Shown here in pieces: positions 766 to 62,196 of a stretch of 64,000 nucleotides of DNA; within the stretch, counting starts at the first letter, position 1, and each line of letters starts with the position of its first letter. Origin of the DNA: Paraspadella gotoi (taxonomy: Eukaryota; Animalia; Chaetognatha); the NCBI GenBank assembly GCA_051294375.1, contig CM119265.1:6581489-6645488 (forward strand). Direction: 5' to 3'. The notes under the pieces are model-generated. The model was not told the origin of the DNA and did no database searches. It was given only the letters and a program-made list of their open reading frames with translations. The translations under genes were made by a program, and so were the position numbers.

Positions 766-7256
<6,491 letters not shown>

Positions 7257-13141: not shown

Positions 13142-13190
<49 letters not shown>

Positions 13191-19986: not shown

Positions 19987-20032
<46 letters not shown>

Positions 20033-24583: not shown

Positions 24584-24722
24584 CCAATTGACTTCATCGA
24601 AAATGAACCTGTTTCCTGAAACCTTCCAATCATCAGTCGCGGAACAAGATTCTAAACCGCGACGTCGTCCAATCAGAAGACGCCAAGTTGAGGATTCGTT
24701 CAGCCAATCAGAGAAAGCCACG
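24584..24722 (+). promoter_or_regulatory. ER-stress promoter: four CCAAT boxes, including a perfect ERSE (CCAAT-N9-CCACG, 24704-24722) and a one-mismatch ERSE (24669-24687)
   Basis: CCAATCAGAGAAAGCCACG and CCAATCAGAAGACGCCAAG; further CCAAT boxes at 24584 and 24626. Lies directly upstream of the HSP90B1 non-coding first exon (donor at 24842). Confidence 0.85.
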
Positions 24723-24921
24723 GTGCCCAGCCGTAAACAAGAACCTCTACGCCGGCGTCCCAACCGTAGTATCGTGGACTCGAATCGGGAATTGTAAACG
24801 AGTAAACTTTTCTTAATTTTTCGTTACTGTTTTATGAAAAGGTAAGTAACGTGTACTGTTTTAAAGAGTGTCCGTTACTAATGTAGTTTACCGAAAAATC
24901 TCATTTTGACAGTAGTTGGTC

Positions 24922-27583
24922 ATGTGGAAATACGTTTTCGTCGTCACTCTTTCCATGGTGACATTATGTTTAACGCCTACGGTAATCGAAGCCGATGAGG
25001 TTACTCCTTTGGAGACGGGACCGGACGTCGCTCTAAACGCTGACGCCGAAGCTGACATCGGGAAGTTCGCAGAGGGATCAAGAACAGATGATGAAACTAT
25101 TTCTAAGGTAAAAATTCAGTTAAAACTGCTCTGATTAGTATGCCGGACCTTGGGATTAATAAGCGATGACTTAATTAAAATAATAACTTTACCCTCATAA
25201 ATAATATATTATTTTAAAAAAATAGGAGGAAGAAGCTATTAAGTTGGACGGATTGAACGTCGCCGAGATAAAGGAACTTCGTGATAAATCAGAAAAATTC
25301 GCTTTCCAAGCAGAGGTTAATCGAATGATGAAGCTCATCATAAATAGTCTCTACAAAAATAAAGAGATCTTCTTGAGAGAGCTCATCTCCAACTCTTCCG
25401 ATGCATTAGACAAGATTCGTTTCATGTCGCTCACCGACCCAGAAGTAATGAATTCTAATGAGGAGATGTCCATAAAGATTAAAGCAGACACTGAAAACAA
25501 GATCCTTCACATCACTGACACCGGAATTGGCATGACCAAAGCTGATTTAATCGACAAACTAGGAACCATTGCGAAATCTGGCACTTCTGATTTTTTCAAC
25601 CGAGTCGCTGAGGGCGGAACACCCGAAGCGGTTAGCGATCTCATCGGTCAGTTTGGTGTCGGTTTCTACTCTACCTTTTTGGTCGCGGATCGGGTCGTGG
25701 TCACCTCCAAACATAATGACGACAAGCAGCACATCTGGGAATCTGATGCCTCGTCTTTCTCCATCGTCGAAGATCCTCGCGGAGACACACTGGGTCGGGG
25801 CACCTCCGTCAGTCTCTACCTCAAGGAGGAAGCCCACGAATTCCTTGAACCCAATGCGATCAAGGAGCTAGTGAAAAAATACTCCCAGTTCATCAACTTC
25901 AACATCTATCTCTGGACCTCCAAGACGGAAGAAGTGGAGGAGCCCGTCGACGAAGATGACGAGCCGAAAGACGATGAAGGAGAAGTTGAGGGATCCGAGG
26001 ACGACGACGCCAAGGTCGAAGAAGAAAAGGAAGATGAAAAGAAGACCAAAAAGGTGGAGAAGACCGTGTGGGACTGGGAGCTGATGAACGACACCAAGCC
26101 CCTTTGGCAGCGCAAACCTTCCGAGGTTGAGGATCAAGAATACCAAGATTTCTACAAGAGCTTCTCCAAGGACTCCACAAAGCCGCTCTCCAAGACGCAC
26201 TTCGTCGCCGAGGGTGAAGTTACATTCAAGTCTATCCTTTTCGTCCCGGACTCTGCCCCTCCCGGTATCTTCAATGATTACGGTTCGAAGTCGAGCCACA
26301 TCAAGATGTTCGTCCGTCGAGTCTTTATTACCGACGACTTCACCGAGATGATGCCCAAGTATCTAAGCTTCGTCAAAGGCGTCGTCGACTCGGACGATCT
26401 CCCACTCAACGTCTCTCGCGAGACCCTTCAACAGAACAAGCTGCTCAAGGTGATTAAGAAGAAGTTAGTGCGCAAAGCCCTCGACATGATTAAAAAGCTT
26501 AAAGAATCCAGCAAAGACGACTACGAAAAGTTTTGGAAGGAGTATTCCACCAATGTGAAGCTGGGCGTGATTGAGGATCCTACCAACCGAACCCGCATCG
26601 CCAAATTGCTTCGCTTTCAATCTTCCAACAGCGATAAGGAGATGACCACTCTCGAAGAGTACGTCGAGCGCATGAAGGAAGGCCAGACCCACATTTACTT
26701 TGTCGGCGCGGGTTCCAAGAGCGAGGCCACTGCGTCTCCCTTCGTAGAACGCCTTCTCAAGAAGGGTTACGAGGTTATTTACTTGGTCGAACCTATCGAC
26801 GAATACTGTCTTCAGTCCTTGCCGGAATTCGATGGAAAAAAGTTTCAAAATGTTGCCAAAGAGGGACTTGAGATTGATTCGACCGAGGAGGCTAAGAAAA
26901 AGAACGAGGAAATGGCCAAAGATCTTGAGCCGCTGCTCAACTGGCTCAAGGAAGACGCTCTAAAGGACAAGATCGAAAAGGCCGTCATCTCTCAGCGGCT
27001 GTCTTCCACTCCCTGCGCTCTTGTCGCCTCTCAGTACGGATGGTCTGGCAACATGGAGCGCATCATGAAGTCTCAAGCCTACAAGAAGTCGGAAGATAGT
27101 ATGAATTCGTTTTACGCGACCCAGAAGAAAACTTTGGAGATCAATCCCCGGTAAGAATATCATGTGCAAATCTTTTGGAACATAATTCAAAGTTTTAGAC
27201 TAATAAAACAATCTTGAATAACACATGAGCTTGTAAAGATTTTATGCTTTTTCAGGCATCCCTTGATGAAGGAGTTGAACCACCGCGTTCAAAAGAACAA
27301 AGACGACCAAACGACGAAAGATTTGGCCAACGTCCTTTTCGAAACGGCGACGCTTCGATCTGGCTTCTCTTTGTCAGAGACATCGTCCTACGCGGAGCGG
27401 ATCGAGCGTATGTTACGGCTCAGTCTCGACGTGCCCCTCGACGCTCAGGTGGAAGAGGAACCCGAACCGGAGCCCGCCAAGGAAGACGCGAAAGCGGAGG
27501 AAGGCGAGGAAATCTCGGCCGAGACTGAAGCCGGTGGGGAAGATGTCGTCGAAGGCGAAACAATGGACAAGGATGAATTGTAG
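24922..27583 (+). CDS. HSP90B1: Endoplasmin / GRP94 (ER HSP90); coding exons approx. 24922-25107, 25226-27150, 27256-27583
   Basis: Signal peptide, [68 protein letters not shown]-terminal KDEL. Confidence 0.98.
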
Positions 27584-27948
27584 GAGAAAAGAACTTTATC
27601 AAGTCTCAACAAACTTTTTAGAACAGTTGGACCAAACTGACTGATTTACATAGATTTCATTCCGATCTTATCCACCGTCTCTTCTCCCATTCAACTAAGT
27701 TCTTGCATTATTTTGCCATGAATTTCGATTAAGTATGCTAATCGCGTTTCATTCCTGTCCCGATTCTTTTTTTTTTTTGGTAGGACCATTTTATTCATTT
27801 TATATTATATATAGTTCGTTTTTGTCCAGGATTAATTGTAGTCTAATATTAATAGTTCGTCCATATTTAAAAGGATTTTTTAATGGTATAAAAGATTGAA
27901 AAATGAATTGTGCCATTCATGATTCTCCTGCGTATTATTTTAGTCGAG

Positions 27949-29843
27949 ATGAAATATTTAATAATCATCGCCCTTACGTGGGCCTTTGTCGCCGTTGACT
28001 CTTTATATTCGCCCGGCGACGGCGTCATCGATCTCACACAACATAACTTTCAAGCGAAGGTCATTGATAGTTCCGACGTCTGGCTTGTGGAGTTTTACGC
28101 TCCCTGGTAAGCACTAATCAAAAGTTGGGTGACATCATTTTACTATCGCCGACTAGGATTAAGGGTGTTTTAGGGTTAGGGGGATCATTTGTTCGCGGTT
28201 AACCAGTTTTTCGCTAGATAATTCATTTTTTACTTTTGTCTTAGGTGTGGTCATTGTCAGGCTTTGGCGCCGGAATGGAAGAAGGCTGCAAAAGCCCTCC
28301 AAGGTTTCGTTAAAGTTGGAGCTGTTGATATGGACCAGCACCCTTCAGTGGGTGGGCCGTACAACGTTAGAGGATTCCCCACTATCAAGATATTCGGAGC
28401 CAACAAGGATTCCCCCAAAGATTACAACGGCCAACGAACTGCTCAAAGCATCGTCGATGAAGCGTTGGCCGAAGTTCGAAACAGCGTAAGGTGAAAAAAA
28501 TGTACATATCCGGCCTGGTAGCAGTGCGTTACTTTTTTTTTCGAATTTATTTGACTTTAAAACTCCTGAGCTGAAGTTAAATCCACTTTTAACATCTGCA
28601 TAATTATAACTCGCTTCCCCAGGTCTCGTCTGGGTGGAGGCGGAGGAAGTTCTGGTGGTGGAGGTCGTGGAGGCAGTGGTGGCAGTTGCGGAGGTGGAGG
28701 AAGCGGTGGAAGTTGTGGGGGAGGTGGAGGAAGCTGTGGGGGAGGCGGTGGTGGAGGGGGTGGAGGAAGTTCCGGCGAGCCCGGAAAGGACGTCGTCGTG
28801 TTGACCGATTCCAACTTTAACGATTTAGTTCTAAATTCTGATGATATTTGGCTCGTGGAATTCTACGCTCCTTGGTACGAAGTGGAATTAAATAATCGAT
28901 ATACGTAGTTGATAGCACGTATAATAATGCTTTTATTTTTCCGTTGCAGGTGTGGACATTGCAAAAACCTTGCTCCGGCCTGGGCTGACGCAGCGACTCA
29001 GCTAAAAGGCAAAGTGAAAGTGGGTGCCCTTGACGCCACCAAACACACGATCAAAGCCGGAGAATACGGAGTCCAGGGATTTCCGACAATTAAATGGTTC
29101 GCGGGCGGCGGAAAAACTGCCTCCGATGCTCGGGACTACGAGGGTGGTCGAACTGCTAGCGACATCGTGAATTTCGCGCTGGAAAAGTTCAAGGCAAATC
29201 TTCCTCCCCCCGAACTCGTCCAAATCACTGTACAAGAAAATGTAGACAAAGCCTGCGGAAACAGCCAGCTTTGCATTATATCGTTTTTGCCCAACATTTT
29301 GGACTGTCAATCCGAATGCAGGTATTGACTTCTATATCAAAATACATTAAGAGTACTGCTTTTTAAATTTATCTACCATTTGACAGAAACAAATTTTTGG
29401 ATATTTTACGAACGATGGGTGAAAAGTACAAGAATCACGGTTGGGGCTGGTTGTGGACTGAGGGAGGTATTCAAAATGAACTGGAAAGTGCGCTGGATAT
29501 TGGAGGCTTTGGTTACCCCGCCATGGCTGCCGTCAACGTAAGGAAAGCCAAATACGCGCTTTTGCGGGGATCTTTCAGTGAAACTGGGATCCACGAATTC
29601 CTTCGAGCCCTGGCGAACGGCCGCGGATCAACCGGTGAGACTAAAAATCAAGGTTAAAATTGAAATGGAATTAAAATTTGGTTCTTTCTGTTTCTAGCAC
29701 CGATCAAGAACGCTCAACTCCCTCCCGTGGTCTCCAGCGATCCGTGGGACGGAAAAGACGGCGAGCTGCCCGTCGAGGAAGATTGGGATTTGTCCGACGT
29801 CGACCTTGACGAGGAAGATGAATCTCAAAAGAGGGAGCTTTGA
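27949..29843 (+). CDS. PDIA6: Protein disulfide isomerase A6 (P5), 6 exons
   Basis: Signal peptide, two VEFYAPWCGHC thioredoxin domains joined by a Gly-rich linker, [25 protein letters not shown]-terminal KREL. Confidence 0.95.
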
Positions 29844-30146
29844 GGTTTCTCTTCAGTCTTCGTTGCGTCACGTCGCCCCTTCCGACAACAAACTAAAATC
29901 CATTCATCATCCCCGGTTAACCAAGTCGATTCGAGTTTTGTTCTAAATTTTACATTCCAGTTTAAAATCTCATTACCGTGCCATCAAATAAAAAAGTTCG
30001 GTTTGTTAAGGAATGTTCCTTTTTAAAGTTAGAGCAAACTTCGAGGGAAATTTATTTTTAGATAGTTGCGTAACGCGTATGTTATTTAAATACGTCCGAT
30101 TATTTTTTTCATTCTCATTTTTTTAGACGACAGACTTAAAAACGAA

Positions 30147-30976
30147 ATGAAGGCTTACATAGTTCTCGGGTGTGTACTGCTGGCTTTTGTTGAGCTGATA
30201 AATGCCAAGAAAGGACCGAAAGTAACTCACAAAGTCTTCTTCGACATTGAGATAGGCGGCGAAAATGCAGGGAGAATCGTTCTTGGACTTTTTGGAAAAA
30301 CTGTGCCAAAAACCGTTCAAAACTTCATTCAATTATCAAAGGTAATAAAACTTTTTGAATTTTTTACCCAGCTTATGTAACGAGCCTACCATTTCTAGTG
30401 TCACGAGAGTGAAACGCCTCCGGCGGGGAAACTCTGCGGATACAAGGGTAGCAAATTTCATCGTGTCATCAAGGACTTTATGGTTCAAGGTGGAGACTTT
30501 ACCAACTTCGATGGCACTGGAGGAAAGAGTATATATGGCGAACGTTTTCCTGATGAAAACTTCAAGGTTAGAACTATTTCTCGATAAAATTTTAATTGGT
30601 GTGCGCAAAATTTATTTTGATTTGTTTTGTAGTTAAAACATTTTGGAGCTGGCTGGGTTAGCATGGCGAATGCAGGAAAAGATACCAACGGCTCTCAATT
30701 TTTCATGTGCACTGTTAAGACACATTGGTTGGATGGCAAGCATGTAGTTTTCGCAAAGGTGAAGCTATGGTTCATTTAGTTCGTTTTTAAAAGTTCGTTT
30801 TTAATGAAATACTGTTTCTTGAACAGGTTCTAGAAGGAATGCCAGTGGTGAGGAAAATTGAAGCGCTTGATGACGGCAGCAGCAAGCCTAAAAAAGAGGC
30901 GAAGATCGCGGATTCTGGAGAGATTCCAGTCGAAGCCCCTTTTGCCGTGCCCAAAGACCCGAGTCCTGAAGAATAA
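30147..30976 (+). CDS. PPIB: Cyclophilin B (ER peptidyl-prolyl isomerase), 4 exons
   Basis: Signal peptide, [65 protein letters not shown]-terminal VEAPFAVPK. Confidence 0.95.
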
Positions 30977-34813: not shown

Positions 34814-34827
34814 GTTGCCATGACAAC
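34814..34827. promoter_or_regulatory. RFX X-box GTTGCCATGACAAC with an adjacent CCAAT box (34792)
   Basis: 13/14 match to the palindromic consensus GTTGCCATGGCAAC, about 105 bp upstream of the first ATG of the cilia cluster. Confidence 0.85.
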
Positions 34828-34930: not shown

Positions 34931-35836
34931 ATGAACAACACTAAACCTACTTTTTTCGGGTCCGGCTATAAGGAATCGGGAAGGTCTGATCTCTATGCGC
35001 AACCTCAACGAATTTCCAACACGAACGGCCTCAGTAAATTTATCATTCCTCGTTTTCCGGCCGCGCGCAATCGAGTCGTGTCCAAGTACCCCCCGCCTTT
35101 TCACCCCGACGCGACCCCACACGGGCGATTAAATTTCCATGTGAGTGTAAAAAAGGCATGCGCTTCCCATCATGCTTCTGGCGTGCGTCTCTCCAAGGTT
35201 GTAATCATCGGCGACAGCGCAGTCGGTAAGACCGCCCTTGTCAATCGATTTTGTCGCGACGCTTTCGAGCGCGACTACAAAGCCACCATCGGCGTAGATT
35301 TCGAGGTGGAGCGTTTCGACGTGCTTTGTCAGCCTTACAACCTGCAGATGTGGGACACGGCGGGGCAAGAGCGATTCCGTGCCATCGCCGCCGCCTACTA
35401 CCGCGACGCTCACATCGTCATCGTCGCTTTTGATCTGACCCGACGAGAGACGCTCGACGCCGCAAGCCAATGGCTCAATGATGCACTAAAAGAAACAGAC
35501 CCGGAAAGGGCGCTGACGTTTTTGGTCGGCGCCAAGCGCGATCTTTTATCTGACGAAGAATTTGACGCCTTTGAACCGCGATGCATCAGCGTCGCCAATA
35601 AGCTCAGGGCCGAGCTTTGGATCACCTCAGCCAAAACGGGATACAACGTTGACGAACTTTTTCACCGTGTCGCGGCACTTGGCTTCGAATCCTTGGTGCG
35701 AGAAGAGAATCATTTCGAGGAGGAAGATAAAAAAGGAAAAATAGGAAATGTACTGACAAATACAGATGTGATAGATTTAAAATCTAGCGATTTGTTTGAA
35801 AAAAATCCTTCGGGCTGCTGTAAGCTTACTCGGTGA
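34931..35836 (+). CDS. RAB36: Rab34/Rab36-family small GTPase, single exon
   Basis: LSKVVIIGDSAVGKT, RFCRDAFERDYKATIGVDFEVERF, WDTAGQERF, N-terminal extension and near-terminal CC prenylation motif, all characteristic of the Rab34/36 clade. Confidence 0.88.
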   Translation: MNNTKPTFFGSGYKESGRSDLYAQPQRISNTNGLSKFIIPRFPAARNRVVSKYPPPFHPDATPHGRLNFHVSVKKACASHHASGVRLSKVVIIGDSAVGKTALVNRFCRDAFERDYKATIGVDFEVERFDVLCQPYNLQMWDTAGQERFRAIAAAYYRDAHIVIVAFDLTRRETLDAASQWLNDALKETDPERALTFLVGAKRDLLSDEEFDAFEPRCISVANKLRAELWITSAKTGYNVDELFHRVAALGFESLVREENHFEEEDKKGKIGNVLTNTDVIDLKSSDLFEKNPSGCCKLTR

Positions 35837-36128
35837 CTTCTTTTTTTTTTATCTATAAGCTACAGTAACGTAAGCATTTATATGTGATTCAATTGATCTT
35901 CGAGAAGTTCCTCGTAGAAGTTTAAAATTATGTTACATATTTATTTTTTACAGTACTGTCACTCTAAAACATTTTCGGAAATATTTAAAGCTTAACTGTT
36001 AAAAAGTTAAATATTTCTCTTAGGGAAAAGATTATGATTAATAATAGATTATTTTTAATTTTAGATCCTAAGTTGTAGTTCATTCAAATAGCGATGTCGC
36101 CGGCGATTCACGCACGAGTTGCAGGTGT

Positions 36129-36196
36129 GGTTCTAGTTGGTTGGCGACTTCGCCATGGCGATATCGCCATGGCGAAGTCGCCAACCAACTAGAACC
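36129..36196. repeat. Perfect 68-bp palindrome centred on GATATC
   Basis: GGTTCTAGTTGGTTGGCGACTTCGCCATGGCGAT|ATCGCCATGGCGAAGTCGCCAACCAACTAGAACC. Confidence 0.95.
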
Positions 36197-36340
36197 TTTT
36201 TCTACTACAATACTCAAAACTTTTGTTTGTCCCTTTTTATTTTTCATTTGATTTCTCTGTTTTATCAAGGCTACGATGATACGTTAGAGACTATAACTTT
36301 AATCACGATAGCCGACTGTAGGACATAAGATATTATTATA

Positions 36341-39300
36341 ATGGCGGACGAGGGCGAAGCCGTCACAAGTGCCGACGACGCCGGCGCCACCACCACCGAT
36401 GGTGCTGACGCCTCAACGCTCGCAGCTGAGGATTTGGAGGCGCCAGAAACGACGGATGCCGCCGAGAGTGGCGAAGACGCCCCCGAAGGCTCGCCGTCCG
36501 AGGATCCCCACGCCGCAGAGGAGGGGGAATCTCAGATGGCAATATCCGAACGGACCAGTCAATCGGCGGGCGGCGAAGAATCAGCCATGGAGGAGGGGAC
36601 GAAGGAAGAGGAGGAAGAAGAAGGGGAGGGAGAAGAGGAGACAGAGGGAGTGGAGGGGCAAACTGGAGGGACGAGGGCGGCGACCACGGAAGGGAGCGGC
36701 GAAGAACCGGAAATGTCGATGGCACAAGTGCGTTTCATTTTTGTTGTTGTTGTTGTTCTTTTCTATTCCTAGGTTGAGTATAACGTTTTTCAGTCGGATC
36801 TGCTTATCTCCCCTCAATCTTGTCGGTCATTCACTTAAATCATGTCAGAACATCGAATTATGATAAATTATCTTAGGCAGATCCGACATTGTTTGATCAA
36901 ACTTGTTATTTTGATTGTTTTGTATTTCAGACCGGAAATACCTACGTAGGCTTAGACGGTCAACTCTAATGTTGTCACTTTACAATTTACTTATTTCTTT
37001 ATTTATAAATATCAGATGAATTTAAAAAGAATATGTTTTCTTTTTATCTGGATGTGAATCCCTGCCCGTTATTCTCCCATTCAACAGCGTTTGATGATGG
37101 ATCTGGATGACGAAGACCTCGTTCCCGGCAGCAGCGAAGATGAAGGAGAGAGCGAATTTCAGGACGAGGAGAGCGGAGAAGAGGAGGAAGTGGAAGACGA
37201 AGGAGTCACGCGCGACGATCTCATTGGCGAATACCACGCCATGCTTGAGGAGAGAGAGTCGCTGCAGCAACGACGGTGACGATTGCTCGAAAGTTGACCT
37301 TACTCTTGAGCGACTGCTCGTTAAGGACTTATTTAAAATCCAGGCATTTCTTGGAAAACAAATTGGCGGAATATTTTCGGAAGAAACGAGATGATAAAGC
37401 CGAAGCTGATAAGAAGCCGCAAACTGCGGAACAGGAGCAGAGATACGTAAAATATATGTCGCAGTTGGAGGATTTGAAAAACGAGGTGAAGTGTTAATTG
37501 TTTATCAGTTGATTTCTTCGATTGTACATTTATTCTTTCATGCGTTATTAATCACAGGAAATCAGCGAGCAAGAGATATTTCAAAGAGAACTTCAGGAAT
37601 TGCGCGTTTTGTGTCAAAGATTCGACCAAGAGGTCGTCGATGAACTAGAAAGCTTCAGGTAAAATTAAGCAACAAATACTAGTAATTATATTAGAAATGT
37701 TATGTAATGGGGTCAGAGGGATCGCCCATGAGTAAACTGCTTGTCTTTTTGATAAACTTTGGCCAGATTATATAAACGTAACGTCGCTCTGGGCGCCATC
37801 AATAGCCGAACCGGAAAACCGTTAACGGTTAAAGACATCGACGTTTACGAGGCGCGGGAGACGCAAAAGACGGCAGAGGTCGTCGCCGTCAGACTCGAGA
37901 ACATCAAATTAAAAAACAGGTGACTATAAAATATAAACAAAAGTCTTAACGTAAAATACGATTTAAAAGTAATGTACACTGCGGCGCTAAAAAAAGAAGA
38001 CACTTCTTTCACACCGAAAAAAACTATATTGGATGGATGGATTTTACTAAGATATAGAAACATAAAACAAAGCTTATTGAAAGATAAAGCGATTGGTCTA
38101 GGTCCCATTAAAATCGATCAAAGCGTCAGAAAGTTATAGGATGTCAAAGTCGATTGGTACAAAACATATGACGAGAATAAATTAATTTTAATCAAGAAGA
38201 GTCTTTAACTTTTTTTTATTATAATATGTTTATAATATATGCGATTTTATTCGAATACAACGAGGTTGATTCAGTACAATCATCATCAACAAACAAACAA
38301 TATGAAATTAGCTGAACAAATTCAGCATCAATATCTGTAAGGATAGGTGTCAACCATTTTCAACCTAAATCAAATTAAAATAAGTAAAAAAATTATATAG
38401 AAAAATAATCTTTTAAAAATAAAAAAAAATAGTTGAGTGATAACTTACCCAAAATTAATTTCAAAGCTTTTTCAGATTAAAATTTTTTTTCCTTATGGCA
38501 TCTCATGTTAAAAAAGACTAATATAAACTCTTACAATTATATTAAAATTATTTTTTTAAATTTTTATTATAAAATTATATTTTGATTTTGAGATAATTTA
38601 AAAAAAATTGATTGTTTTCAATATTTATTATTAAAATGCCATATTTGGCAGCAATTAAAAAATATTTTTATAAAAAAGTAATATAAATTTATTGCCAACC
38701 CTTTTATATATTTAATTCCATTAAGATTTTATTAATTCTATATTGTAAACATAAGTCAGAAAAAGAAGTTTAATTAATACTAACCTTTAAAAATCACTTT
38801 TTCCCCAATTCTGTTTTGAGACTCTGACTTTAAAGTCTTGCTATATAGTGGTGTATTTAAAAATACATAGCGTCTTTTTTTTTTTTTGCGTCGCAGTGTA
38901 AATTGTAAGTTATTTTAAATTGATTTCAATCTTAAAAAGGTTGAAAAAACGCGAACAGCAATTGAAGGCCAAAGAGGAGTTGGCCGAGGGACTTCATCTC
39001 ATCGATTTCGAGCAGCTCAAAATAGAAAATCAAACTTACAACGAGAAAATAGAAGAGCGAAACGAGGAATTGCTGAAGCTAAGAAAGAAAATCACGAGCA
39101 CAGTGCAGGTGTCACTTCTTTTTTCTTCTCACTGAAACCATTTTTTACTTCTATAGTCTTCTTTCCTATTCCTTTTTTTCACGAAAAAGGTCCTCACCCA
39201 TTTGAAAGAAAAATTGCAATTCGTTCAAGCGGAAAATCAAGTGCAAAAGGTCAACCTGAAAACCTTGGAGTCCACCGTCGCGAGCAGGAGGGACGTTTTA

Positions 39301-39810
39301 TCGAAGACGAAACAAGGTTATCGAGGAAATGAGATTTTCCCCCTTTTTTTCGAGCTTTGATCTATATGTACAAAATTCTTTAGGTTTCCGTTCCCACGCT
39401 TTCATGAATTACAATTTTAAATGACGAGATACAGTATACTAACGTTGATTTTTTATTGTTAAACTTTCCTTATCGTGGCGACTTTTCTTTTCCTAGGTCG
39501 AGACGCTTTGCGAATCGATAATCAGAGACTGCGGCTCAACTGTGGCATGCTTGGAAACGAACCTCTGCTCAGGGACTTTGAGGAAAAAAAGAATGAGGCA
39601 GAGATGCTCGAGCAAAAACTTGAAAGGTGGAGCCTAAAGAATAAAGAGTGAAGACTAAAGGGGGAGGAAATCGGAAACTAGAACTGTTTGAAATTCAAAT
39701 TTCGTTGTTCCTTTTGTTTTTCCAGATTGAAACGTCAGCACGCGGAACTCACGTTGAGTTGCAGTGGAGTGCGCAAAAAGATTGAACAAGTTCGCGCGAT
39801 TAGGTCCTAA
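36341..39810 (+). CDS. CCDC96: Coiled-coil ciliary protein CCDC96/CFAP184 (DUF4201), about 9 exons
   Basis: Acidic N-terminus, KLAEYFRKK, AVRLENIKLKNR, KEELAEGLHLIDFEQLKIENQTYNEKIEERNEELLKLRKK, GMLGNEPLLRDFE. Confidence 0.9.
36787..36908 (+). mobile_element. Internally deleted HINE-family copy
   Basis: Both sub-terminal repeats (GTCGGATCTGC ... GCAGATCCGAC) and internal sequence shared with 43997-44742. Confidence 0.65.
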
Positions 39811-40036
39811 TTATATTGATATATGTACTACCTGTGCTATCAGCCATCCAAAAAATTGATCTTGCTAACAACCTACGCCGGAATTCCAATGGTTCTCCCT
39901 TCTACAATAATCATTTTTTCATTGTACATTTTTTTTCATACATAGATCATTTTCTAAACTATGCATGGACACGTGATCGACTGTAAGCTAAGCACCGACT
40001 GTAATCGACACTAATCAGCCTTACTAATAAAATAAA

Positions 40037-41649
40037 ATGGCCGACTTAAATCCGCTGGCAAACCCCAAGGGGGTCAAGCTTCTGTGCGAAATGTGCAACA
40101 AACCTGCCTTTGTCCAGTGTCACCGATGCAAAGTCACCTACTACTGCAGCAGAGATCACCAGGTGCGATTCGAAACAATTTTTTGCCTGATGTGGTTTGG
40201 TTTTTAAAATTTTAAATAGATAAAAGATATTTTGGACTCAGGATGCCGACTGGGTGGGAATCCACGAAAAGATCTGCCAACTCTTGATTCCCCTTCGAAC
40301 GCCGGCGTCGTTCTCGAGCTCGGAAGAGCAACGACAGCGACGCCAAGCGGAGATCGTCGTGCGCCAACGCGAGCTGCTCGACCTCACCCTCACCACCGGC
40401 TCCAAGCTTCTCTTCGAGGGCAAGTACGAGCAAGCGGTTCCCGCCGCCATGCAGGTCGAGTTTGGCTTTTGACCTTAAAGTGGGCGGTTTCACTCTTCTA
40501 ACCTTTCCGGTTAATGCGGAACCTTAGGCTCTCCGTTTTGCGATGGACGTCTACGGCAGTGGCTGCATTGAACTCGTTCCAGCTTATCTCATTCTGGCAG
40601 AATCCAGTATTGGTTTGGGAAAACTTGTTCAGGCAGAAGAATATCTTTCCCAGGTTAGCTTTAAGAATGGTTTATTTATTTTTATTTAATTTTGATTAAT
40701 CACCTAATTCCTTGTTAATTTGATAAATTTTAGGCCCAGTGGGCGGTTTTGCAAAAACCCGACTGTTCGAAGGCAGTTCGGTCCAAGTTGAACCGAAACC
40801 TCGGCATGCTTCACGCAGCTGAACGTAATTATTCCGACGCGTTGCGATATTTTTCAGACGATATTTACTATTCGTCAGACGAGTTCGGAACCGACAGCAT
40901 TCACACGGCAGGGGGCTTCTTTCACATGGCTACTGTGTTTCATAAGCAGGTTATTGGACGCTCCATGGGAATTAAAACGTAGTTAACAAGACAGAAAAAT
41001 TTTATTACCAATTTGTTAACAATCAGGGCCAAACGGAAACCGCGGAGTCTTTGTACCTAGAAGTGACTGACATATGGTATAAGCATTTGGAGCAAATTGT
41101 GCAGAGAATGACGACGCGTCCACCAACTCCAAAGGGTGAAAATTATAAAAAAACTAAAAACTAAATGCGAAAAATTTTATATCTGTTACTTGCGCTTCTT
41201 TCATCCTATGCTGCCAGGACTCGGCATAATCCACACGAAGAAAGAGGAACCAAAACCTGGTCTTGATGAAGCTCAAGAAGCCGAGGCGCGCCAGGTAAAT
41301 TCTAAGATATAAAAGAGAAATTTCTTTGCTAAGTGGTTTTCTTCCTCCCCTTTTTTAGGTCTTGCACACCATCCACGAATTGCGTGAGAGAGAGCCACCG
41401 GCCAATCGTGACATTTACGCCAAGGTCAGCTTAACATTTTTGAAACGATATCGGGGAGTTCTCCGCCATCTTTACCTTTTGTTTGACGCTTCTTAGGTCG
41501 TACTGACTCTGGCCATGCTTAACTTCGTCATGAACGAGCCCGACCGCGCGAGGGATTGCGCCAGTCACGCGCTGATGTCGCTCCAGGGAAAAGAAGATTC
41601 CGCAGTGGCGCACGACGTCGTCACTTTTCTCAAACTCGTTGACGTCTGA
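40037..41649 (+). CDS. ZMYND12: MYND zinc finger + TPR-like protein ZMYND12 (axonemal), about 9 exons
   Basis: NPLANPKGVKLLCEMCNKPAFVQCHRCKVTYYCSRDHQ-DADWVGIHEKICQLLIPLR, ELVPAYLILAE, DDIYYSSDEFG..TAGGFFHMA. Confidence 0.9.
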
Positions 41650-41920
41650 CCCTTTTTTTTTTCTAGGAAGGGGGGAAGCTTAAAGAGCAGGGCGAAAAGG
41701 GAATGGGAACACTCAATTTCTAGTCATACGTATGTTTTAATCCTTGAATGTTATTCCTTAATCCAGCTTTGTGTAGGTTTTGGAAAGAAAAAATCTGAGC
41801 AGCTATCCCTAACGCTGAAAATGACTTGATTGTTGCGGAGAGGGCTCACTAACTCATCGTTTCCACACCCGAACACAAACACACAACGTAAAAAAATAAC
41901 TACTTGCTAAAGCTTTGAAA

Positions 41921-44900
41921 ATGCCTATGCCGATGAATGGAAAGAGCATGCTGCAAACGCCGGATCCTTATCACACTCCTGGATACTGCGGCTACGTTCC
42001 GCAATGCAAATACCGAATCGGAAACACATACGGCCACACCACTCACAAATTACTCAAAAATCCCGAAGTGCCAAGCTCTGGAAAACTTGTGCTAACAGAC
42101 ATTTACACAGTAAGCTACTGAATCCGGCTAAAGATTGTTCGGTTCTTTTGTAAACAACAAATTTGCATAATGCGATTTACCAGAAAAAGATCAATATTAC
42201 TATTTTTTTATTGAGGTGGTTCTTGGGAAATTCTTGAATTTTATATTACAACGAAATTAAATTTAGGAAGGAACTGATGTGACGTTGCTCAACAAAAAAG
42301 CTCAAAATGTGTCAACCAGAAACGCATCATGGGGCGATCAAAAATACACTGACCGAATGGTTCCTGGCTACACCGGCTTCATTCCGAAAGCCCAACATTA
42401 CTTTGGGAAGAGATACGCCGAAGGATGTGTCAACTCCGTTTCAGATTTCCAAGTTAGTTTCTCTTTATGTAATCTACATTACGTAAACTCTGCCACATAG
42501 CATATTATAGATATTGCCAATATTTTGTTATTTTATTTTGAATCAAAAAATAATTTAGGAATCGCTAGACAATTTAAAAATTGCTCAAGATATATTGATG
42601 ACCTTTTTTCAGCAGATTTTAAGGATTTTAAAACACATCTTGCTAACATATATCCAGCAGCACTTACTGTCAATAAACTTAATAGTACAAATACAAATGT
42701 AGATTATTATTTAGACATTAACATTAAATCAGAAAACCAAAATCTTACTCTTTCTGTTTATGATAAAAGGAATTCCTTTTCTTTTGAAGTAGTTACCCAT
42801 TTATGGACAGTTGTATTCCTAGAAAAGCAGCATTAGGTGTATTTATTAGCCAATTAATTAGATATGCCAGAATATGTTCAATATTTACATATTTTTCATC
42901 GTGAGCAATAAATTTAAGCAAAAAATTACAAAGTCAGGGTTAAGAAAAATGGGAATTAAATTTTTCAATATTTATAAGGAACTAATAATAAAATATAATG
43001 TTACTGAAGTTGATCTATTTTTAAAAAAGATAAAAAATAACAAAATTAAACCTCTTTAAATAATAATAATAATAACATCAACAATATTATTTAAATAACT
43101 TATTTAACTGTTGATTAAAAACGTCGAATTTGGGTTCAAGTGCATTATTCACTTTGTCGGTCCGCCCCATCAATCTTGTCGGGCATTCACTTATGTCAAA
43201 ACATCGAATTATGATAAATTATGCACAAAAAAAATGATGTCCATCCTTCTGTCCGTCCCACCTTAGCAAAAACATCAATTACTCGTGATTTGATGGATGG
43301 ATTGGAATGAAATTTTGTGTGTGGGTAGGAAAGTGTGTGATTGAGCTGGAAATCAAGTTTCGATGGAATTGTCCGAGTGGAAATGAGTTAAAATTGAAAA
43401 AACAAAAAAATATATTTGACTATTTGAACGCAAAATTACTCATGAGTGCAATTCGGCGATTGACTTAAAATTTTGTATGTGGGTAGGAAAGTGTGTGATT
43501 GAGCAGGAAATAAAGTTTTGATGGAATCGTCCAAGTTGAAATGAGTTAAAATGGAAAAAAACAAACAATCTATTTCACTATTAGATTATGCCTTTTTTTA
43601 TTTTTATATTAAATGTAAATTCAAGCTGCATTAATTAATTATTAATAAATAAGCAATTAATTAATTATTAATTATTTGCAATTAATTAATTTTGTGATCG
43701 AGATTGTTGTTTTGTGATTGAGAGGCGAGACAAAGTGGAAAACGATTTTGACACGAATAAAAAAAAATTATTAATTATCTGATCAGCTGCTTACCGCTAA
43801 AGATCGTGGGCAGATCCGGCATTGTTTGCTCAAGCTTGTTTTTTTGAAAACCAATATTTCGATCTTAATTGACAGATCATCGTTCAGGGTAAAATTTAAG
43901 TGGAGGGATTTATCCCTGTTGTATTGTTTGACTATCTCTCTCTCTCTCTCTCTCTCTCTTTCTTACTAAGAGTCTTCGCTAAGAGTCTTAACTCACTTTT
44001 TAGTCGGATCTGCTTTCAGCAGATCCCGACTCTATAATTCACTTTGTCGGTCCGTCGGTCCGCCCCCTCAATATTGTCGGGCACTCACTTATATCAAGTC
44101 AGAACATCGAATTATGATAAATTATGCAAAAAAAACGATGTCCGTCCGTCCGTCCGTCAATCCGTCCGTCCTTAGCAAAAAACACCAATTACTCGTGATT
44201 GGATGGATGGATTGGAATGAAATTTTGTGTGTGGGTAGGGAAGTGTGTGATTGAGCTGTATATGAAGTTTCAATGGAATCGTCCGAGTGGAAATGAGTTT
44301 AAATGGAAAAAAAAAATTCACTATTTGAACACCAATTACTCATGAGTGGATGGGGCGATTGACTTGAAATTTTGTATTCGGGTAAAAAAGTGTGTGATTA
44401 AACTGGAAATCAAGTTTCGACGGAATTGTTTGAGTGGAAATGAGTTTAAATGGAAAAAACAAAGAACCTATTTTACTAATTGATTATGCTTTTTTTTCTT
44501 TTTATTTTAAATGTAAATACAAGATGTATTAATTAATCAATCAATTAATCAATCAAAACAAACATTTCTGATCAAATTAATTAATTAATTGCCTAATTAA
44601 TTAAATAATTAACTTGAATAAATAAATTATTAATTAAATAATTAACTTGAATTAATTATTAATTAATTATTAATTAATTATTAATTAATTAATTACCGAT
44701 AATGATCGTGGGCAGATCCGATATTGTTTGCTCAAACTTGTTTTCTCTCATTTCACTTTTACCCTGAACGATGGTCAATTAAGAGCGAAATATTGGTTTT
44801 CAATAAAAAAAATATACTGCACTTTTAACCCAAATTCGACGTTTTTCATCAATAATTAAACAGTGTATGCTATGACTCTACAAACTCAACATATTTAACT

Positions 44901-45913
44901 TTAATTTATTGAACTCGTTGATTTAACTTATTTTTAAACTTTTATTAATTAACTTAATGTTAACTTAACATACCCTTAATTATTTAACTTATTATTTAAC
45001 TAATTATTTAACTAATTTAAATTATTTAGATTTATTAAGATAAACATTCAAAATATATCTTTAAAAGATAGGATAAGCAACAATGAAGAATCACCATTTG
45101 GTGATACCTGGATATTGGGATTAAAGAGTAGAAATCCATGAAGGGTTTAGTTTCCAACTGATGACCTTCCCTTTGTATAAACATAAAAATATACAAAAAA
45201 GTAGGATAAAGAAATGTAATTTAATTTGCAAATTTTTCTTATGATTATTGATTATGAACGCATCTTATCTAATTATTTTACTTAATATTATAGGTCGCTC
45301 AAGAGAAACATGGAAGCAAGGAACGGTCTCTCGACGCCGCTCAAAAACCTCCAATGAGGCAGACGGCTAAAGACATGTCTTCGTATTTGTCGCCTGGTAG
45401 TCAGGTGAGAATACTGTGTTTGTGCAAGTAACGATAAATTTTTTTATCCTTTTATTTTAAAACCGAGTTCATTATTTTATTAAGGTTGTGTATTGGAAAT
45501 CGCCCTACAGAATGGAAAACAGCGATAGGCTGAAATACTTCATGTCTGGATACACGGGTTTCGTACCTCGCACGCGGCCTTTGATAGGCATCGGTTACCC
45601 CGTTAAGGTAGTTGAACAATGGGTTGTTTTATTAATTAACAAACTCTTAATAACTTTGTTTCTCCATCAGACTCACGTTGGATTAAACACTTTCACTGAC
45701 ACGATTCACGCTAATGACGCGCTACGCGGGGCTGCCGTACAACTTAACAAACCGGAAGTTGTCAAGGTTGTGACGCGCCCTCTCTACCCGAAAGAAGCTG
45801 GAATGATTCCCAATTACACTGGTCATGTACCAGGATACAAGTTCAATTTCGGCCATACTTATGGCCAGGGAACTGTTGGTGCCACACCGGGTAACATAGC
45901 AGCTCATTCATGA
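41921..45913 (+). CDS. FAM166B: FAM166/CIMIP2-family microtubule inner protein with repeated PGYxG motifs; a possible alternative last exon ends at 45988
   Basis: TPDPYHTPGYCGYVPQCKYRIGNTYGHTT, MVPGYTGFIPK..FGKRY, YFMSGYTGFVPR, GMIPNYTGHVPGYKFNFGHTYG. Contains a repeat-filled intron of about 2.8 kb. Confidence 0.82.
42525..42895 (+). mobile_element. Frameshifted reverse transcriptase fragment, Penelope-like element
   Basis: RYIDDLF, IYPAALT, YLDINI, SVYDKRNSFSFEV, then after a frameshift DSCIPRKAALGVFISQLIRYARICS, typical of the PLE RT C-terminal/thumb region. Confidence 0.75.
43145..43842 (+). mobile_element. HINE/DINE-1-like element, 5'-truncated copy 1
   Basis: Colinear with the copy at 43997-44742, with an internal duplication of about 155 bp and the shared 3' end. 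Confidence 0.65.
43997..44742 (+). mobile_element. HINE/DINE-1-like element, full-length copy 2
   Basis: T-rich start, 5' subTIR GTCGGATCTGC with nearby inverted copy CAGATCCCGAC, (GTCC)n microsatellite, 3' subTIR GCAGATCCGA and terminal stem-loop GTTTGCTCAAAC. This is the canonical layout of Helentron-associated elements. Confidence 0.7.
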
Positions 45914-46372
45914 TTTTATCATGCCTCGGTTTTTTGATCGCGATTAATTGAATTTCTGATTGCAGGGCGTCCCCAGTTGGTTGGCTAGAAATCCAACTAC
46001 GAATAGTCTACCCAGGAGCGCGAGAGCCATCTCAAGCGTGGTTTAGATTTAGTGTGTGCTATTGTCGAATGTCGAATGGTTCTTATCACCAAGACGTAAA
46101 TTTCAATAGAGAATAGACGTAATTTGTACATCCTTTTTCGGGATTAGATGACCAGTATGATTGAGACGAACCCCCCCTCACTCGCTTTTAACAATCATCC
46201 TAGCAAGATACAACACGATATCTCGCACTCCACTTTATTTGTATTCCTGGGGGTTTTTTTGTCCTTACGGCACTAGTCATGAATTATTGTTTTGTCACTC
46301 TTTCGGTGCGATCTCTCAATTTGATGTTTTTCGTCTTCAGGAAAAATATTTTAGCTTAGTTTTAAGCGAATC

Positions 46373-46844
46373 ATGTCGAACCCCAAAGAAATAAAGACTG
46401 AGGATTGCGAATGTGAGGCCAGGGAAGCGGCCGAGTTCGACGAAGTTAAGTTTATTGACAGCAAACCAATACCTGAACAGCAGCCTTGCTATCTTCCCGG
46501 CAACGTTGTCTTCAATTGCACGGATCCCCCTAAGATGCGAACGGTAGAGAGAAGTCCAGATCCTTGGTTCAAAGGTTTGTTAAGACTGCTGGTTGATTGA
46601 TTGAGGCGAAATCGTAACGAAAAACTTTTGTGAGCTTGTCTCAGGTTATGGCGGCATGCCCCAGAATCCGATGTATCGTACGACCAACAACGACTACGGA
46701 AGCGGCGTCCCAGACGTCCACACTTTTCCGGCTGTTTTTTACGGCACTTCAAACGCGTACACCAAGAACGCAGGCCAATGTGGCATGTACCGCGATCATG
46801 GACTCAACACTTCGCTCGACAAGTCCAGTGTCCCGGAATTCTAG
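46373..46844 (+). CDS. PIERCE-family microtubule inner protein (C9orf116/C15orf65, DUF4490), 2 exons
   Basis: PWFKGYGG..PMYRTTNNDYGSGVPDVHTFPAVFYGTSNAYT..CGMYRDHGLNTSLDKS; intron approx. 46575-46644. Confidence 0.85.
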
Positions 46845-47083
46845 TTTTCTGTCCTTTGTCAATTTTCATTACATTGAGACTAATTACATCTCATTTGACC
46901 TATAGTTAAATAAACGAAAGTCGCTAGATAATAGGTCAATCGGATCAAACTACATCGTTATCTCAATCGCTTCCTAGTCATTATGATGTCATTTTGTTAC
47001 ATTTGTACGCCTTTCATTTTTTCAACGGTATGATTTTTAGATTTTTGTCTCGACCAGTCATTGATTGAACGCGAGTATAATCG

Positions 47084-49181
47084 ATGGAGTCGCCGCCATC
47101 TCAAGCCGCTGAGGCTTCGGCCGAAACCTCGAGCTCCACCGAGGCTGCGCAGCCTTCCAAATGGCTTGACGCCCACTATGATCCCATAGCCGGCCTGTAC
47201 ACATTCTCCCAGTGTATGACACTGGCCGATATCTACGCCGACGGCGATTACAAATTGGTCATCGCCGACCTCGGCAACGGACTGACGAACATGAAGCTAA
47301 AGGTCTTTAAAGGAACAACAATGATTCAGCAGAACACTATCATCGATCTTCCGACGGGCGTCTGCTCCTTCTTCATGGACGCCAACGAACCGAAGACTCC
47401 TGCCGTTGCGGTCGCTTCTGGGCCCTTCATCTATGTTTACAAGAACCTGCGTCCCTACTTTAAGTTCACCCTACCGTCCCTACCTGTCAACCAGCTGGAG
47501 CAGGATTTGTGGAATCAAGTCCGGGAGGACCAAATAGACGTCAACATCCTGAGGGAGATGTTGGACGGAATTCGTCAAGACGGTAGCCAGGGCACCCTGA
47601 CCGTCAGATCGCTAAAATTTCTCCAGGTTGGACGAAGGCCTTTTTTCTTTCATCATATTTTAATTTTTAAAAAGTTTCTTTTTGTTAAACTGGAAATGTT
47701 TGTAGCTTCACCCCGAGGGATTAGAGTCTTTCGCCAACACATACAAGCACGCACCGCTCAAAAAACAGACTGTCATCACCTGCCTACAAACACTAAAAAA
47801 GTCGATGGCCGACGACGACGCTATAAGTTGCCTAGTTTTGGGAACGGAGAGTCAATCAATTTACATTCTGGACCCCGAGGTTATTATAATTGTTTTTTTG
47901 TATGAAATTTTCATTAACTTGAATTTTTCTTAATTAGAATTAATAACGATAATAATTACAAACACTATTTCTTAGGCCTTCACCGTTTTGTCAACTATGA
48001 CACTTCCTTCGGTTCCTGTGCTGCTCCACGTTTCCGGTTTATACGACGTTGAATTTCGCGTTATCGTCGCCTGTCGCAATGGCGGCGTTTATGTCGCGCG
48101 TCGAGGCCAAACCAGTGGGAAATTATTGTTTTCGCTAAATGCTCAGGCTGTGGGACTCGACAAGGTCAATAAGACAATAGTCGTCGCTTGTATGGATCAG
48201 TCGCTGCAAGGCTACAGTACCAAAGGGAGGTGAGGACACTGCTCAATTTCTTTAGGAGCAACAATGAAACGCGAGATTAATTAAGTCTTTTAGGTCGCTT
48301 TGGTCTGTAAATCTTCCGGCCAAAGTTCTGTCCATGGCGCCTATGGATTATTCTCAACGAGGTTACCAAGCCGTTTTAGTTGGTCTGGCCAATTGCGAGG
48401 TTCACATATACAACGAAAAATTTCTCGTTCACAGCATGAAGACAGAGGATCTCGTGACAGGTTCGTCATTTGTCGGAGATTTTAACTCGTCTTGTGTTCA
48501 TGGTTCATTCCTTTTTTTTCAGGTATAAGGTTCGGTCAATTCGGTCGCGAATCCAGCGCCCTCATCCTCACGACTCGCGGAGGCGGACTTTCCATCAAAA
48601 TCCTCAAACGTAACGCGACGTTCGAGGGCCGAGAGTCCGCTCTCGGGCCACCCGCCGCTCAGAGCTCACGCCTCAACGTCCCTAAGAAGACAAAACTGTT
48701 TGTGGATCAAACGATGCGTGAGCGTCAAAACTGTATCTCCATGCATCGTCGCTTCCAGCAAGATCTTTACCTCTTGCGTCTCAAGACGGCGCGAGAATAT
48801 TGCAAGACGTTGGACACGTCGCTGACGCCCGTCAGCACCAACGCATCGGACCCTTTAAAGCTTTCGGCACAGATTCAAGGCATCGGACCAACGTTCAAGC
48901 TGACCGTCTCTATACAGAACACCAGCTTGACAGCTCCCTCCATGGGCCTAGCCATTTCTTTCGGCTACGACGACTCACTTTACCAACTGCAAGATACCTT
49001 TTTAAAACTCCCTATGCTAGTACCGGGCCTCAATTACGCGTTCGAGACTTTCGTCGAAAGCATCAGCGATAAAGGTGTCGCGGATACGATCAAAGTGTTT
49101 GTACTCAAGGATCAAAGCTCTGCGCCACTCATCACGGCAATGATAAACATGCCCGTCTCGGAAACCGTAGTCGTTGTATAA
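47084..49181 (+). CDS. BBS1: Bardet-Biedl syndrome 1 protein (BBSome), 5 exons
   Basis: SKWLDAHYDPIAGLYTFSQC, LADIYADGDYKLVIADLG, YVYKNLRPYFKFTLP, LNVPKKTKLFVDQTMRER, LITAMINMPVSE. Confidence 0.97.
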
Positions 49182-49404
49182 CTCTGTACACTCAGATATT
49201 CTTTCTCACTTCATTTTTGTTAAAAGAAAAAAATTCTTTTATACAACGTTTCGTTTTATAAAAACGAAGTCGGTAAACAAAAGATCACCCAATTTTGCCC
49301 ACCACTCTAGTCACATTTAAAATCCTTAGCTTTTTTCAAACAGAAATTAAATTACAACTACTGTACCAAATTCCATAAAAACATTATCGAGAAAAATATT
49401 TAAA

Positions 49405-49887
49405 ATGACAAGCTACCGAGCTGCCGATTCGAAGCGTGAGGAGTTCCGGAAATATCTCGAGAAAGCGGGAGTCTTGGACGCCCTTACCAAGGTTCTCGTC
49501 GGCCTGTACGAAGAACCGGAAAAAGTGAGATTCTCTTCGAGAAATAAAAAATAGAAAAAAGATTAATAATTAGTCACGATTTGGAATGATAACGGCGATT
49601 TTCCCACCTTAGCCGAACAATGCTCTGGACTTTCTGCGCCAGCATTTGGGTGCGACTCCGGACACGGCAGACGTGGAGGCCCTGAAGCTCGAAGTCACAG
49701 AGTTGAGGAACAAGGTCAACGTATTATATTTATAATTTACCAATAGAAATCTCATCTTTGAACGGTTCGGTGACTTTAAATTCATCCTATATTTTAGGTG
49801 GAGCAACTGAGTGACGAAAACGCGGACCTTCGCGCTAAACTTCAGCAATACGAGCCCCCGGCTGACGATGCCCCGCCCGCTGAATAA
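49405..49887 (+). CDS. MYCBP: c-Myc-binding protein (AMY-1/FAP174; axonemal component), 3 exons
   Basis: MTSYRAADSKREEFRKYLEKAGVLDALTKVLVGLYEEPEK-PNNALDFLRQHLG. Confidence 0.95.
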
Positions 49888-50453
49888 GTCGACTTTAATT
49901 TTGTTTCTTTTGATTATTTTTCCGACGCTCGGAAGCCAATTTTGCCGTCATCGCTCATGTATAATATAGACGTAGTGATTCTTATTGCCTCAGCTTAGCG
50001 TTCAAGTACGAGTATATATTCATGTTAAGAAAACCAAAGTGAAACGTGTTCTGTACAATGGAGGATTTTGACCTTAATCGCCCATAAAGTTCCTTTATTA
50101 ATACCGAATCATGTTTCGATAAACAATCCTTATTGCTTATGAAAAACTGATCAAGTTCAGTTTTATTGTAAGGTAGTAATATAATTTGCTGGGAAAACTT
50201 TTAATAAATTATATCGTGTGAAAAGACTTTATAACTTTAATTTATGAAATTGCTATTTTTGAAATTTATTTTATGGTAGTACATAATATTTCTTGTTGCT
50301 TCCATTTTTTCTCTCAAGGTCGCAATACTATTAGGATTTGTATTTTTTTCTCTTCAACTTCAACTTAAATATATTTAACGTCCATAATATTGCCATACAA
50401 TAAAACCTATTATTGCTTCGAAAGGTTTTCTTTTTTTTTCGCGCATAGTTTAA

Positions 50454-52826: not shown

Positions 52827-52954
52827 TTCTTCTGATCACTCCATGTTTCTGTCACTACTAACTAGTCAAATAGTTATCAATTTTGTCAATGTTGTCACTT
52901 TCTCTAACTTATTACATCTTAGTTGTCTTGGAACCTATCCTACGTTTTGAAAGG

Positions 52955-54688: not shown

Positions 54689-55214
54689 AAAATGATATTT
54701 TTTTAATATCCGTATATCGGTATGTTGCTATCTCATTCAGCTATATATGTAGTATATTCCATCATGGGATAACTTTACAATTCGACGTCCGCAACCAACA
54801 TTATATTATTATATTATATATTATATTATTATATATATTATTATATTAACTACTACCGGTCATTAAATTTTGTTTCAGCGTTGTTTCAGTTTGCGCTGTA
54901 ATACAATTTTTTTTATTTCTTCATTTATAAAATTGGTATTACCAATATAAAAATTATTTATTTATTTAATAAATAAGCTATTTTGCCCCTGATTTTGGAC
55001 ACTCTTACAAGATATAACATAACAGGTCCCTGCAAGCTTTCAATCAAAACTCTCTCTTTATTCACTCCCAGAGTACCTGGCTTGTTTATAAATGAAGTGG
55101 TATAATATTTCAAAGTATGTTTCAATTGTATGAAAAGACATCTCCTTTTTAAAGTATATGATCGATAGATAAGATTAGACTTATTAAATTTTATGTTTTT
55201 TAAATGGATAGTAA

Positions 55215-62104: not shown

Positions 62105-62196
<92 letters not shown>

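Follow-up and report, generated by a model that had tools for sequence, protein, structure and literature searches.

The 64,000-nt stretch of Paraspadella gotoi DNA analyzed here (the window) carries, in tandem on its plus strand, the genes for three folding factors of the endoplasmic reticulum (ER) lumen, HSP90B1 (GRP94), PDIA6 (P5), and PPIB (cyclophilin B), and our analysis suggests that the trio is probably transcribed from one promoter bearing ER stress response elements (ERSEs) as a single precursor, which would be resolved into three messages by spliced-leader trans-splicing. The tandem arrangement, which had been proposed in a preliminary description of this DNA, is confirmed by gene models, Pfam matches, and spliced contigs.

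Results

Organization of the ER gene trio

The stop-to-ATG gaps measure 365 bp between HSP90B1 and PDIA6 and 303 bp between PDIA6 and PPIB, and Pfam recognizes across the trio an HSP90 domain, two thioredoxin domains, and a cyclophilin domain; we take the last gene to be of the B subtype from its intron positions, in addition to its signal-peptide-like N terminus. All 11 predicted introns, including the one at 24842-24912 in the 5' untranslated region (UTR) of HSP90B1, are spliced in the contigs of run X1, which we treat as RNA in view of its spliced contigs and which possibly comes from the window's own species or sample. Runs X2, X3, and X5, on the other hand, carry the labels of other organisms, and their short, low-depth pieces are used as weak support. 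Contig depth in X1, a poor measure, declines along the trio from 1544 to 822 to 602. Upstream of the trio, an expressed plus-strand transcript spans ~20200-24210, with no Pfam match in the single frame tested. Because this transcript ends at 24210 and RNA cover is absent at 24353-24785, the trio has its own start. Assuming 30-150 ER folding genes among 15,000, chance would yield 3e-5 to 4e-3 same-strand ER runs of this kind per genome, and the trio is a real and non-random feature.

Twenty-eight relatives of HSP90B1 were found at 86-89% identity, falling into 9-13 groups, and matches with named organisms reach 74%; in a quick tree, the protein groups weakly with chordates (SH-aLRT 81). A metagenome scan with HSP90B1 gave 80 loci with 2 close relatives, both on transcript-like single-gene contigs, and a scan with exon 1 of PDIA6 gave 0 of 187.

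An ERSE-type promoter ahead of HSP90B1

Four CCAAT boxes, at 24584, 24626, 24669, and 24704, precede HSP90B1, a cluster matched by 4 of 300 block shuffles. Two of them open ERSE-type elements, which are bound by NF-Y and ATF6. The exact element at 24704-24722 occurs as a single copy in the 64 kb (0.11 expected; present somewhere in 11 of 100 shuffles), and the window's sole one-mismatch copy, at 24669-24687, stands beside it just before HSP90B1. With one mismatch allowed, the window contains 2 matches versus 2.51 expected, a count not above chance, and the weight of the pair lies in its position and conservation, not in its number. RNA cover in X1 begins at 24786, both elements lying within 120 nt of this observed RNA start. 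As for conservation, a relative's transcript contig (L002), whose HSP90B1 is 89% identical over 183 residues, keeps both ERSEs in register, with 19/19 motif letters retained versus 17/34 of the letters between and inside them; this is the one relative contig of one that reaches the region, since another (L001) begins just past the pair. Neither intergenic spacer contains CCAAT on either strand, and the claim that only the first gene has the CCAAT/ERSE array is therefore borne out. Tandem elements near the RNA start, conserved in a relative, support the assignment of a putative ERSE-type (ATF6/NF-Y) promoter to HSP90B1. A run of 31 foreign letters at the tip of the HSP90B1 contig was considered as a leader and rejected, since it matches nothing in the window and no AG stands where it joins; it is read as a chimeric tip.

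Spacers and RNA ends within the trio

The acceptor-like AG that had been described ahead of PDIA6 is confirmed in the window letters, where TTATTTTAG ends at 27943, 5 nt upstream of the ATG, and the PDIA6 contig of X1 (depth 822) starts at 27942, the A of this AG. This start was obtained from two readings, one from the side of the first piece and joint, 164 letters long, and the other from a bin depth of 955.3 versus 955.31 predicted, a value reproduced solely by a start at 27942. The HSP90B1-PDIA6 spacer has no AG/GT donor, and no joint from HSP90B1 to the PDIA6 AG occurs among the 15 of 24 X1 joints listed. A cis intron at 27886-27943 was rejected, as with it the match would begin at 27943 and an ATG would arise upstream. 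The AG at 27942-27943 and the AG touching the ATG are the sole AGs that leave no upstream ATG before the PDIA6 start; at 27783, 27829, and 27855 lie AGs of better score, which leave three ATGs ahead of it. A relative's fragment (P0001), when back-translated, reads as pyrimidine-rich codons followed by CAR three bases ahead of the start codon. On the upstream side, HSP90B1 RNA cover extends to 27778 in X1, with low-depth pieces reaching 27868 (X5) and 27908 (X3), and the hole in contig cover at 27779-27941 is not taken as proof of a gap. Neither AATAAA nor ATTAAA was found in the HSP90B1 3' UTR and spacer (27584-27943), which is 31% GC and without CCAAT. The 672-nt UTR of the relative's HSP90B1 contig L001 also lacks AATAAA, as in abutting operons, and at L001:3245-3272 it shows a terminal T-rich AG followed by eight A, a weak signal ranking 4th of the 27 AGs in that UTR. 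A leader ending in AG would yield exactly the observed start of the PDIA6 contig, and we regard leader addition at PDIA6 as quite likely.

In the PDIA6-PPIB spacer, an AATAAA at 29987 and a T-rich AG ending at 30126 were confirmed as previously described, the distance between them, given as about 135 nt, measuring 134 nt. This AG ranks first of 13 in its spacer by a scoring matrix derived from only 11 verified introns.

Spliced leaders and the operon criterion

In chaetognaths, an operon is called where same-strand genes have RNA ends less than 250 bp apart (PMC12460157). The distance from RNA end to next acceptor is 165 nt between HSP90B1 and PDIA6 in X1, or 35 nt by the low-depth X3 piece, and 203 nt between PDIA6 and PPIB in X1, or 105 by X3 and 54 by X2; both spacers thus fall under 250 bp when measured on RNA ends, the stop-to-ATG distances of 365 and 303 exceeding it. 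Evidence of leaders comes from relatives. In P0029, a relative's protein 86% identical to the window's HSP90B1 exon, residues 3-11 correspond to the published chaetognath leader SL3.2 in its third frame (back-translation, by eye; 2.8e-11 with random codons), and in that relative HSP90B1, the first gene, takes a leader. In P0252, from the cluster of a relative of DNAAF4 (a gene of the neighboring run described below), the first 12 residues start like the SL2/SL4 leaders and finish like SL3, with 11 codons between the leader-like part and the start; in the window, the acceptor that scores best precedes the DNAAF4 ATG by 31 nt. Trans-splicing of leaders is thus indicated by two relatives' proteins, and for the window's species we infer it from these sequences. 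They also place the window very likely within the chaetognaths, a position that the trees of HSP90B1 and DNAAF4 had not settled, and tunicate and other assignments were dropped in their light. The tRNA and Rfam searches of the window gave no match, and hence no leader RNA gene was seen.

Under the proposed mechanism, NF-Y and ATF6 would bind the ERSE pair and transcription would begin near 24720-24790. HSP90B1 would either retain the 5' end formed by its own cis-splicing or have a leader added at its first acceptor, and its 3' end would form near 27910-27943, with a leader joined at 27944 for PDIA6; the PDIA6 message would be cleaved past the AATAAA at 29987 and a leader joined at 30127 for PPIB. 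In this way, a chaperone, a disulfide isomerase, and a prolyl isomerase would all be raised by a single stress switch.

Table 1. Features of the ER gene trio and of the neighboring cilia gene run (window coordinates)
Feature	Position	Strand	Description and basis
Promoter array, four CCAAT boxes	24584..24722	+	ERSE-like CCAAT-N9-CCAAG at 24669-24687; exact ERSE CCAAT-N9-CCACG at 24704-24722
GTAAACA word	24733..24739	+	Common to the window, L001, and L002; putative core promoter or forkhead-type site
HSP90B1 5' UTR exon and cis-spliced UTR intron	24786..24912	+	Exon seen at 24786-24841, intron 24842-24912; X1 contig and joint
HSP90B1 / GRP94 coding region	24922..27583	+	3 coding exons, 812 aa, C-terminal KDEL; gene model, Pfam, X1 contigs
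HSP90B1 3' UTR and short spacer	27584..27943	+	Closes with AG 27942-27943, a probable trans-splice acceptor, or initiator-like TTAGTC
PDIA6 / P5 coding region	27949..29843	+	6 exons, 473 aa, two CGHC domains, C-terminal KREL; gene model, Pfam, X1 contigs
PDIA6 3' UTR and spacer	29844..30126	+	AATAAA at 29987; T-rich AG 30125-30126, the probable PPIB trans-splice acceptor
PPIB / cyclophilin B coding region	30147..30976	+	4 exons, 212 aa, signal-peptide-like N terminus; gene model, Pfam, X1 contigs
Palindromic RFX X-box	34814..34827	+	Perfect, with CCAAT just upstream; ahead of the first cilia gene; sole window site matching the strict pattern with at most one mismatch
Themed run, 11 genes	34931..59696	+	Rab (RAB34/36-like), CCDC96, ZMYND12, CIMIP2, PIERCE, BBS1, MYCBP-like, TTC8/BBS8, BBS12-like, AK7, DNAAF4

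A neighboring run of cilia genes

The second themed cluster that had been noted 4 kb from the trio is real and comprises 11 same-strand genes. Direct ciliary matches were obtained for 9 of the 11, by Pfam (CCDC96, CIMIP2, PIERCE, and BBS1), by PDB (BBS8, a Chlamydomonas flagellar protein, ZMYND12, and AK7), or by homolog names (DNAAF4), these identities resting on single exons. The Rab gene is presumably RAB34/36-like, PDB comparison not having settled its subfamily, and we likewise take the chaperonin-like gene to be BBS12-like and another to be MYCBP-like. Stop-to-ATG gaps within the run are 128-878 bp, and with assumed gene-set sizes the expected number of such same-strand cilia runs by chance is at most 1e-10. 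A relaxed X-box pattern gives 8 matches at 6 places in the window versus 2.83 expected, none of them in the downstream cilia spacers. The word CTAGTCA occurs at 41720, 46273, 46974, 49307, 52862, and 58111; all six window copies are plus-strand, each in a different spacer of the run and 93-201 nt before the next ATG (location test, Bonferroni 2.8e-5). When shared spacer words were tested by shuffling, the outcome was borderline, a 7-mer in six spacers being reached by 17 of 200 shuffles. The word may be an intercistronic processing signal, an initiator-like internal start, or a 3' UTR element, and because it may mark internal starts, the cilia run is not established as a single transcript. A contig joining 36124 to 36271 has a depth of 581 versus 15 for the Rab contig, its short side being 27 letters long and lying beside a repeat, and this difference could reflect a stronger internal start ahead of CCDC96. 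The repeat, a near-perfect, MITE-like inverted repeat at 36096-36270, lies inside an apparent 5' UTR intron of CCDC96, and its left flank is matched by many high-depth contigs.

The window's DNAAF4 (58281-59696) is a single-exon gene, and fragments from relatives (P0254 and P0256) break off in an intron-like manner at two places; intron loss or a retrocopy within the cluster may be considered from this comparison. In a tree, DNAAF4 groups with none of the named rows. A single exon likewise makes up the Rab gene and the BBS12-like gene.

An EMI- and EGF-domain gene occupies ~31100-34700 on the minus strand, between the trio and the cilia run; it is divergent from the Rab gene and probably shares the X-box region. 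The PPIB contig continues unspliced to 32061, over the likely 3' exons of this gene. Elsewhere in the window, an animal haem peroxidase gene lies at ~744-7256, which by its motifs we take to be cyclooxygenase-like, and a minus-strand gene of secreted type at ~60000-63400 carries short Asp/Cys-rich, metal-binding-like repeats (weak Pfam match). The ~12 kb at ~8000-20000, in contrast with the adjoining tight gene runs, contain many microsatellites and no gene recognized by eye.

Discussion

Weighing the single-precursor interpretation

The preliminary description had held that one ATF6-responsive promoter drives a polycistronic set. The promoter half of this claim is upheld by the ERSE present solely at the first gene and kept in L002, and the polycistronic half is favored by a lineage with leaders and operons, by a PDIA6 RNA start at an AG without a local cis donor, and by RNA ends closer than 250 bp. 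Several observations weigh on the other side. No contig bridging two of the trio genes was found among the pieces listed (contigs only), the 23 listed of 186 loose ends showed no leader letters on PDIA6, and the relatives' contigs, being transcript-like and single-gene, give no view of gene order. By the 11-intron matrix the PDIA6 AG ranks 11th of 14 in its spacer, and the main PPIB contig begins inside the coding region, at 30184, the 5' end of this message not being seen in RNA. TTAGTC at 27940-27945 resembles the initiator consensus, with its +1 A exactly at 27942, such words occurring 0.66 times per 365 nt. Chaetognath leaders have been printed as ending in AAA (PMC2481426), which would place the matched PDIA6 start at 27944 instead of 27942, except if the true leader has a terminal AG. 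Moreover, a leader on a gene is no proof of an operon in chaetognaths: because trans-splicing affects roughly half of the genes of P. gotoi, only 18% of its genes being operonic (PMC12460157), and because a relative's HSP90B1 also bears a leader, a leader alone is not decisive.

The three genes might alternatively be started separately and co-regulated, or form a hybrid operon, with internal promoters, short outrons, and single-gene trans-splicing, the ERSE acting on all of them; we judge this unlikely, while granting it a real share of probability. It is in keeping with the report that in P. gotoi the majority of trans-spliced genes lie outside operons (PMC12460157), and with the initiator-like CTAGTCA ahead of six cilia-run ATGs, which could mark internal starts. 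It also draws on the PDIA6-PPIB spacer, which is CpG-rich (CpG observed/expected 1.98) and holds the bZIP-like words TCACGTC and TTGCGTAA, making an internal promoter there possible on its letters. On the other hand, just 35-165 nt separate HSP90B1 RNA cover from the PDIA6 start, in a spacer poor in GC and free of CCAAT, and neither ER spacer contains CTAGTCA, also when one mismatch is allowed. Another reading, in which PDIA6 starts alone and leader-free at the TTAGTC initiator with a 7-nt 5' UTR and the three genes are mere neighbors, predicts the start of the PDIA6 contig exactly and would account for an AG that is weak as an acceptor. A 7-nt UTR would be unusual for an abundant message, however, the relative's fragment P0001 keeps an acceptor-like end before its ATG and not the AGT of the initiator word, and upstream promoter words were not found in the HSP90B1-PDIA6 spacer; we consider this reading rather improbable, though still a genuine competitor.

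The start at 27942 would likewise be produced by a shared first exon, as in the cholinergic locus, if the HSP90B1 5' UTR exon, whose donor at 24841 ends in AAG, were cis-spliced to the PDIA6 and PPIB acceptors; yet the HSP90B1 contig passes through this exon without a break, and the 15 of 24 joints listed include none of this kind, though joints down to depth 5 appear, which makes a shared exon very improbable. That housekeeping genes merely came to lie together in an operon-rich genome would be helped by the enrichment of P. gotoi operonic genes for protein metabolism, which raises the base rate (PMC12460157), but with at most 4e-3 ER runs expected when the assumed set sizes are generous, and another themed run, of 11 genes, 4 kb away at 1e-10 or less, chance adjacency is extremely improbable. 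A single ERSE-driven precursor resolved by leader trans-splicing remains the interpretation that we favor.

Significance and comparison with known operons

The mechanism proposed for the trio is of a known kind, and its new part would be the dedication of an operon to one pathway under the element of that pathway's transcription factor. If true, an animal would here possess a single-pathway operon of a bacteria-like kind. The usual description of animal operons is one of housekeeping groupings, and according to the chaetognath genome paper genes under fine regulation are left out of them (PMC12460157); a counter-example to the housekeeping-only view would, if true, be provided by an inducible operon that serves a single pathway and has a longer one as its neighbor. 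The question of whether animal operons are selected for co-regulation or merely accumulate is thereby made testable. More speculatively, arrow worms may have rebuilt ancient regulons of animals as bacteria-style operons, with ATF6 acting via the ERSE trio and RFX via the X-box cilia run, a reading that we offer as tentative and on present evidence doubtful; the genome-wide organizing principle of themed operons suggested previously belongs to the same reading and shares its standing. Scattered targets would have been gathered behind one promoter, a gene copy needing only an acceptor for expression, and it is for this reason that the window's DNAAF4, without the introns that relatives appear to keep, is cited alongside. 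If this reading is true, operon membership would predict gene function genome-wide, and if themed operons are general in chaetognaths, neighborhood could assign uncharacterized genes to ER folding or cilia, including human ciliopathy candidates. Searches of the open full-text literature, outside which most subscription papers lie, gave no description of an operon for ER folding or cilia controlled by an element specific to its pathway, and the P. gotoi operon table may list such units.

Operons resolved by spliced leaders are well known from chaetognaths, nematodes, and tunicates (PMC2481426, PMC12460157, PMC2776167, PMC2760879). Among chaetognaths they include the RPS14-PCNA operon of Spadella cephaloptera (PMC2481426) and 1,470 validated operons of P. 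gotoi (PMC12460157), which the trio resembles in its same-strand order, RNA ends less than 250 bp apart, the proposed leaders on first and downstream genes alike, and protein-metabolism content, and from which it differs in that its members all belong to one pathway and lie behind that pathway's putative inducible element. The longest operon named for P. gotoi has nine genes, for ribosomal, ubiquitin, and proteasome proteins (PMC12460157), and is thus shorter than the cilia run of 11, a run known here from same-strand order. The succession of AATAAA, ~100 nt, and T-rich acceptor between PDIA6 and PPIB is also that of Caenorhabditis elegans SL2 operons. A C. elegans cyp-9/pdi-1 operon, involving other paralogs, was reportedly described by Page in 1997; it did not turn up in our literature search. 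Along with the nine-gene P. gotoi operon and the myosin operon of Ciona, it may be regarded as a partial precedent. In C. elegans, where the median intercistronic distance is 99 bp (PMC7986045), downstream genes receive a dedicated SL2 leader, whereas an operon-specific leader is absent in chaetognaths (PMC12460157, PMC2481426), and operon genes are rarely related by function (PMC2776167), the opposite view being cited in PMC2481426. In Ciona intestinalis operons, the upstream 3' end lies near the downstream acceptor without AATAAA, as at HSP90B1-PDIA6, first genes are single-exon, as is the Rab gene of the cilia run, and myosin light and heavy chain form a functionally related pair; unlike here, Ciona genes abut without a spacer, the largest operon has six genes, and the accessible text describes no pathway-specific promoter (PMC2760879). 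Abutment of the Ciona type is approached at HSP90B1, whose cover comes within 35 nt of the AG by a low-depth X3 piece, and the PDIA6 AATAAA stands 134 nt before the PPIB AG. In mammals, the ERSE and ATF6/NF-Y regulon, which includes GRP94, GRP78, and PDIA6, has tandem elements of the CCAAT-N9-CCACG type just ahead of GRP94, and its ATF6 targets are unlinked, each with its own promoter, whereas here PDIA6 and PPIB, without an ERSE of their own, lie downstream of HSP90B1, which has it.

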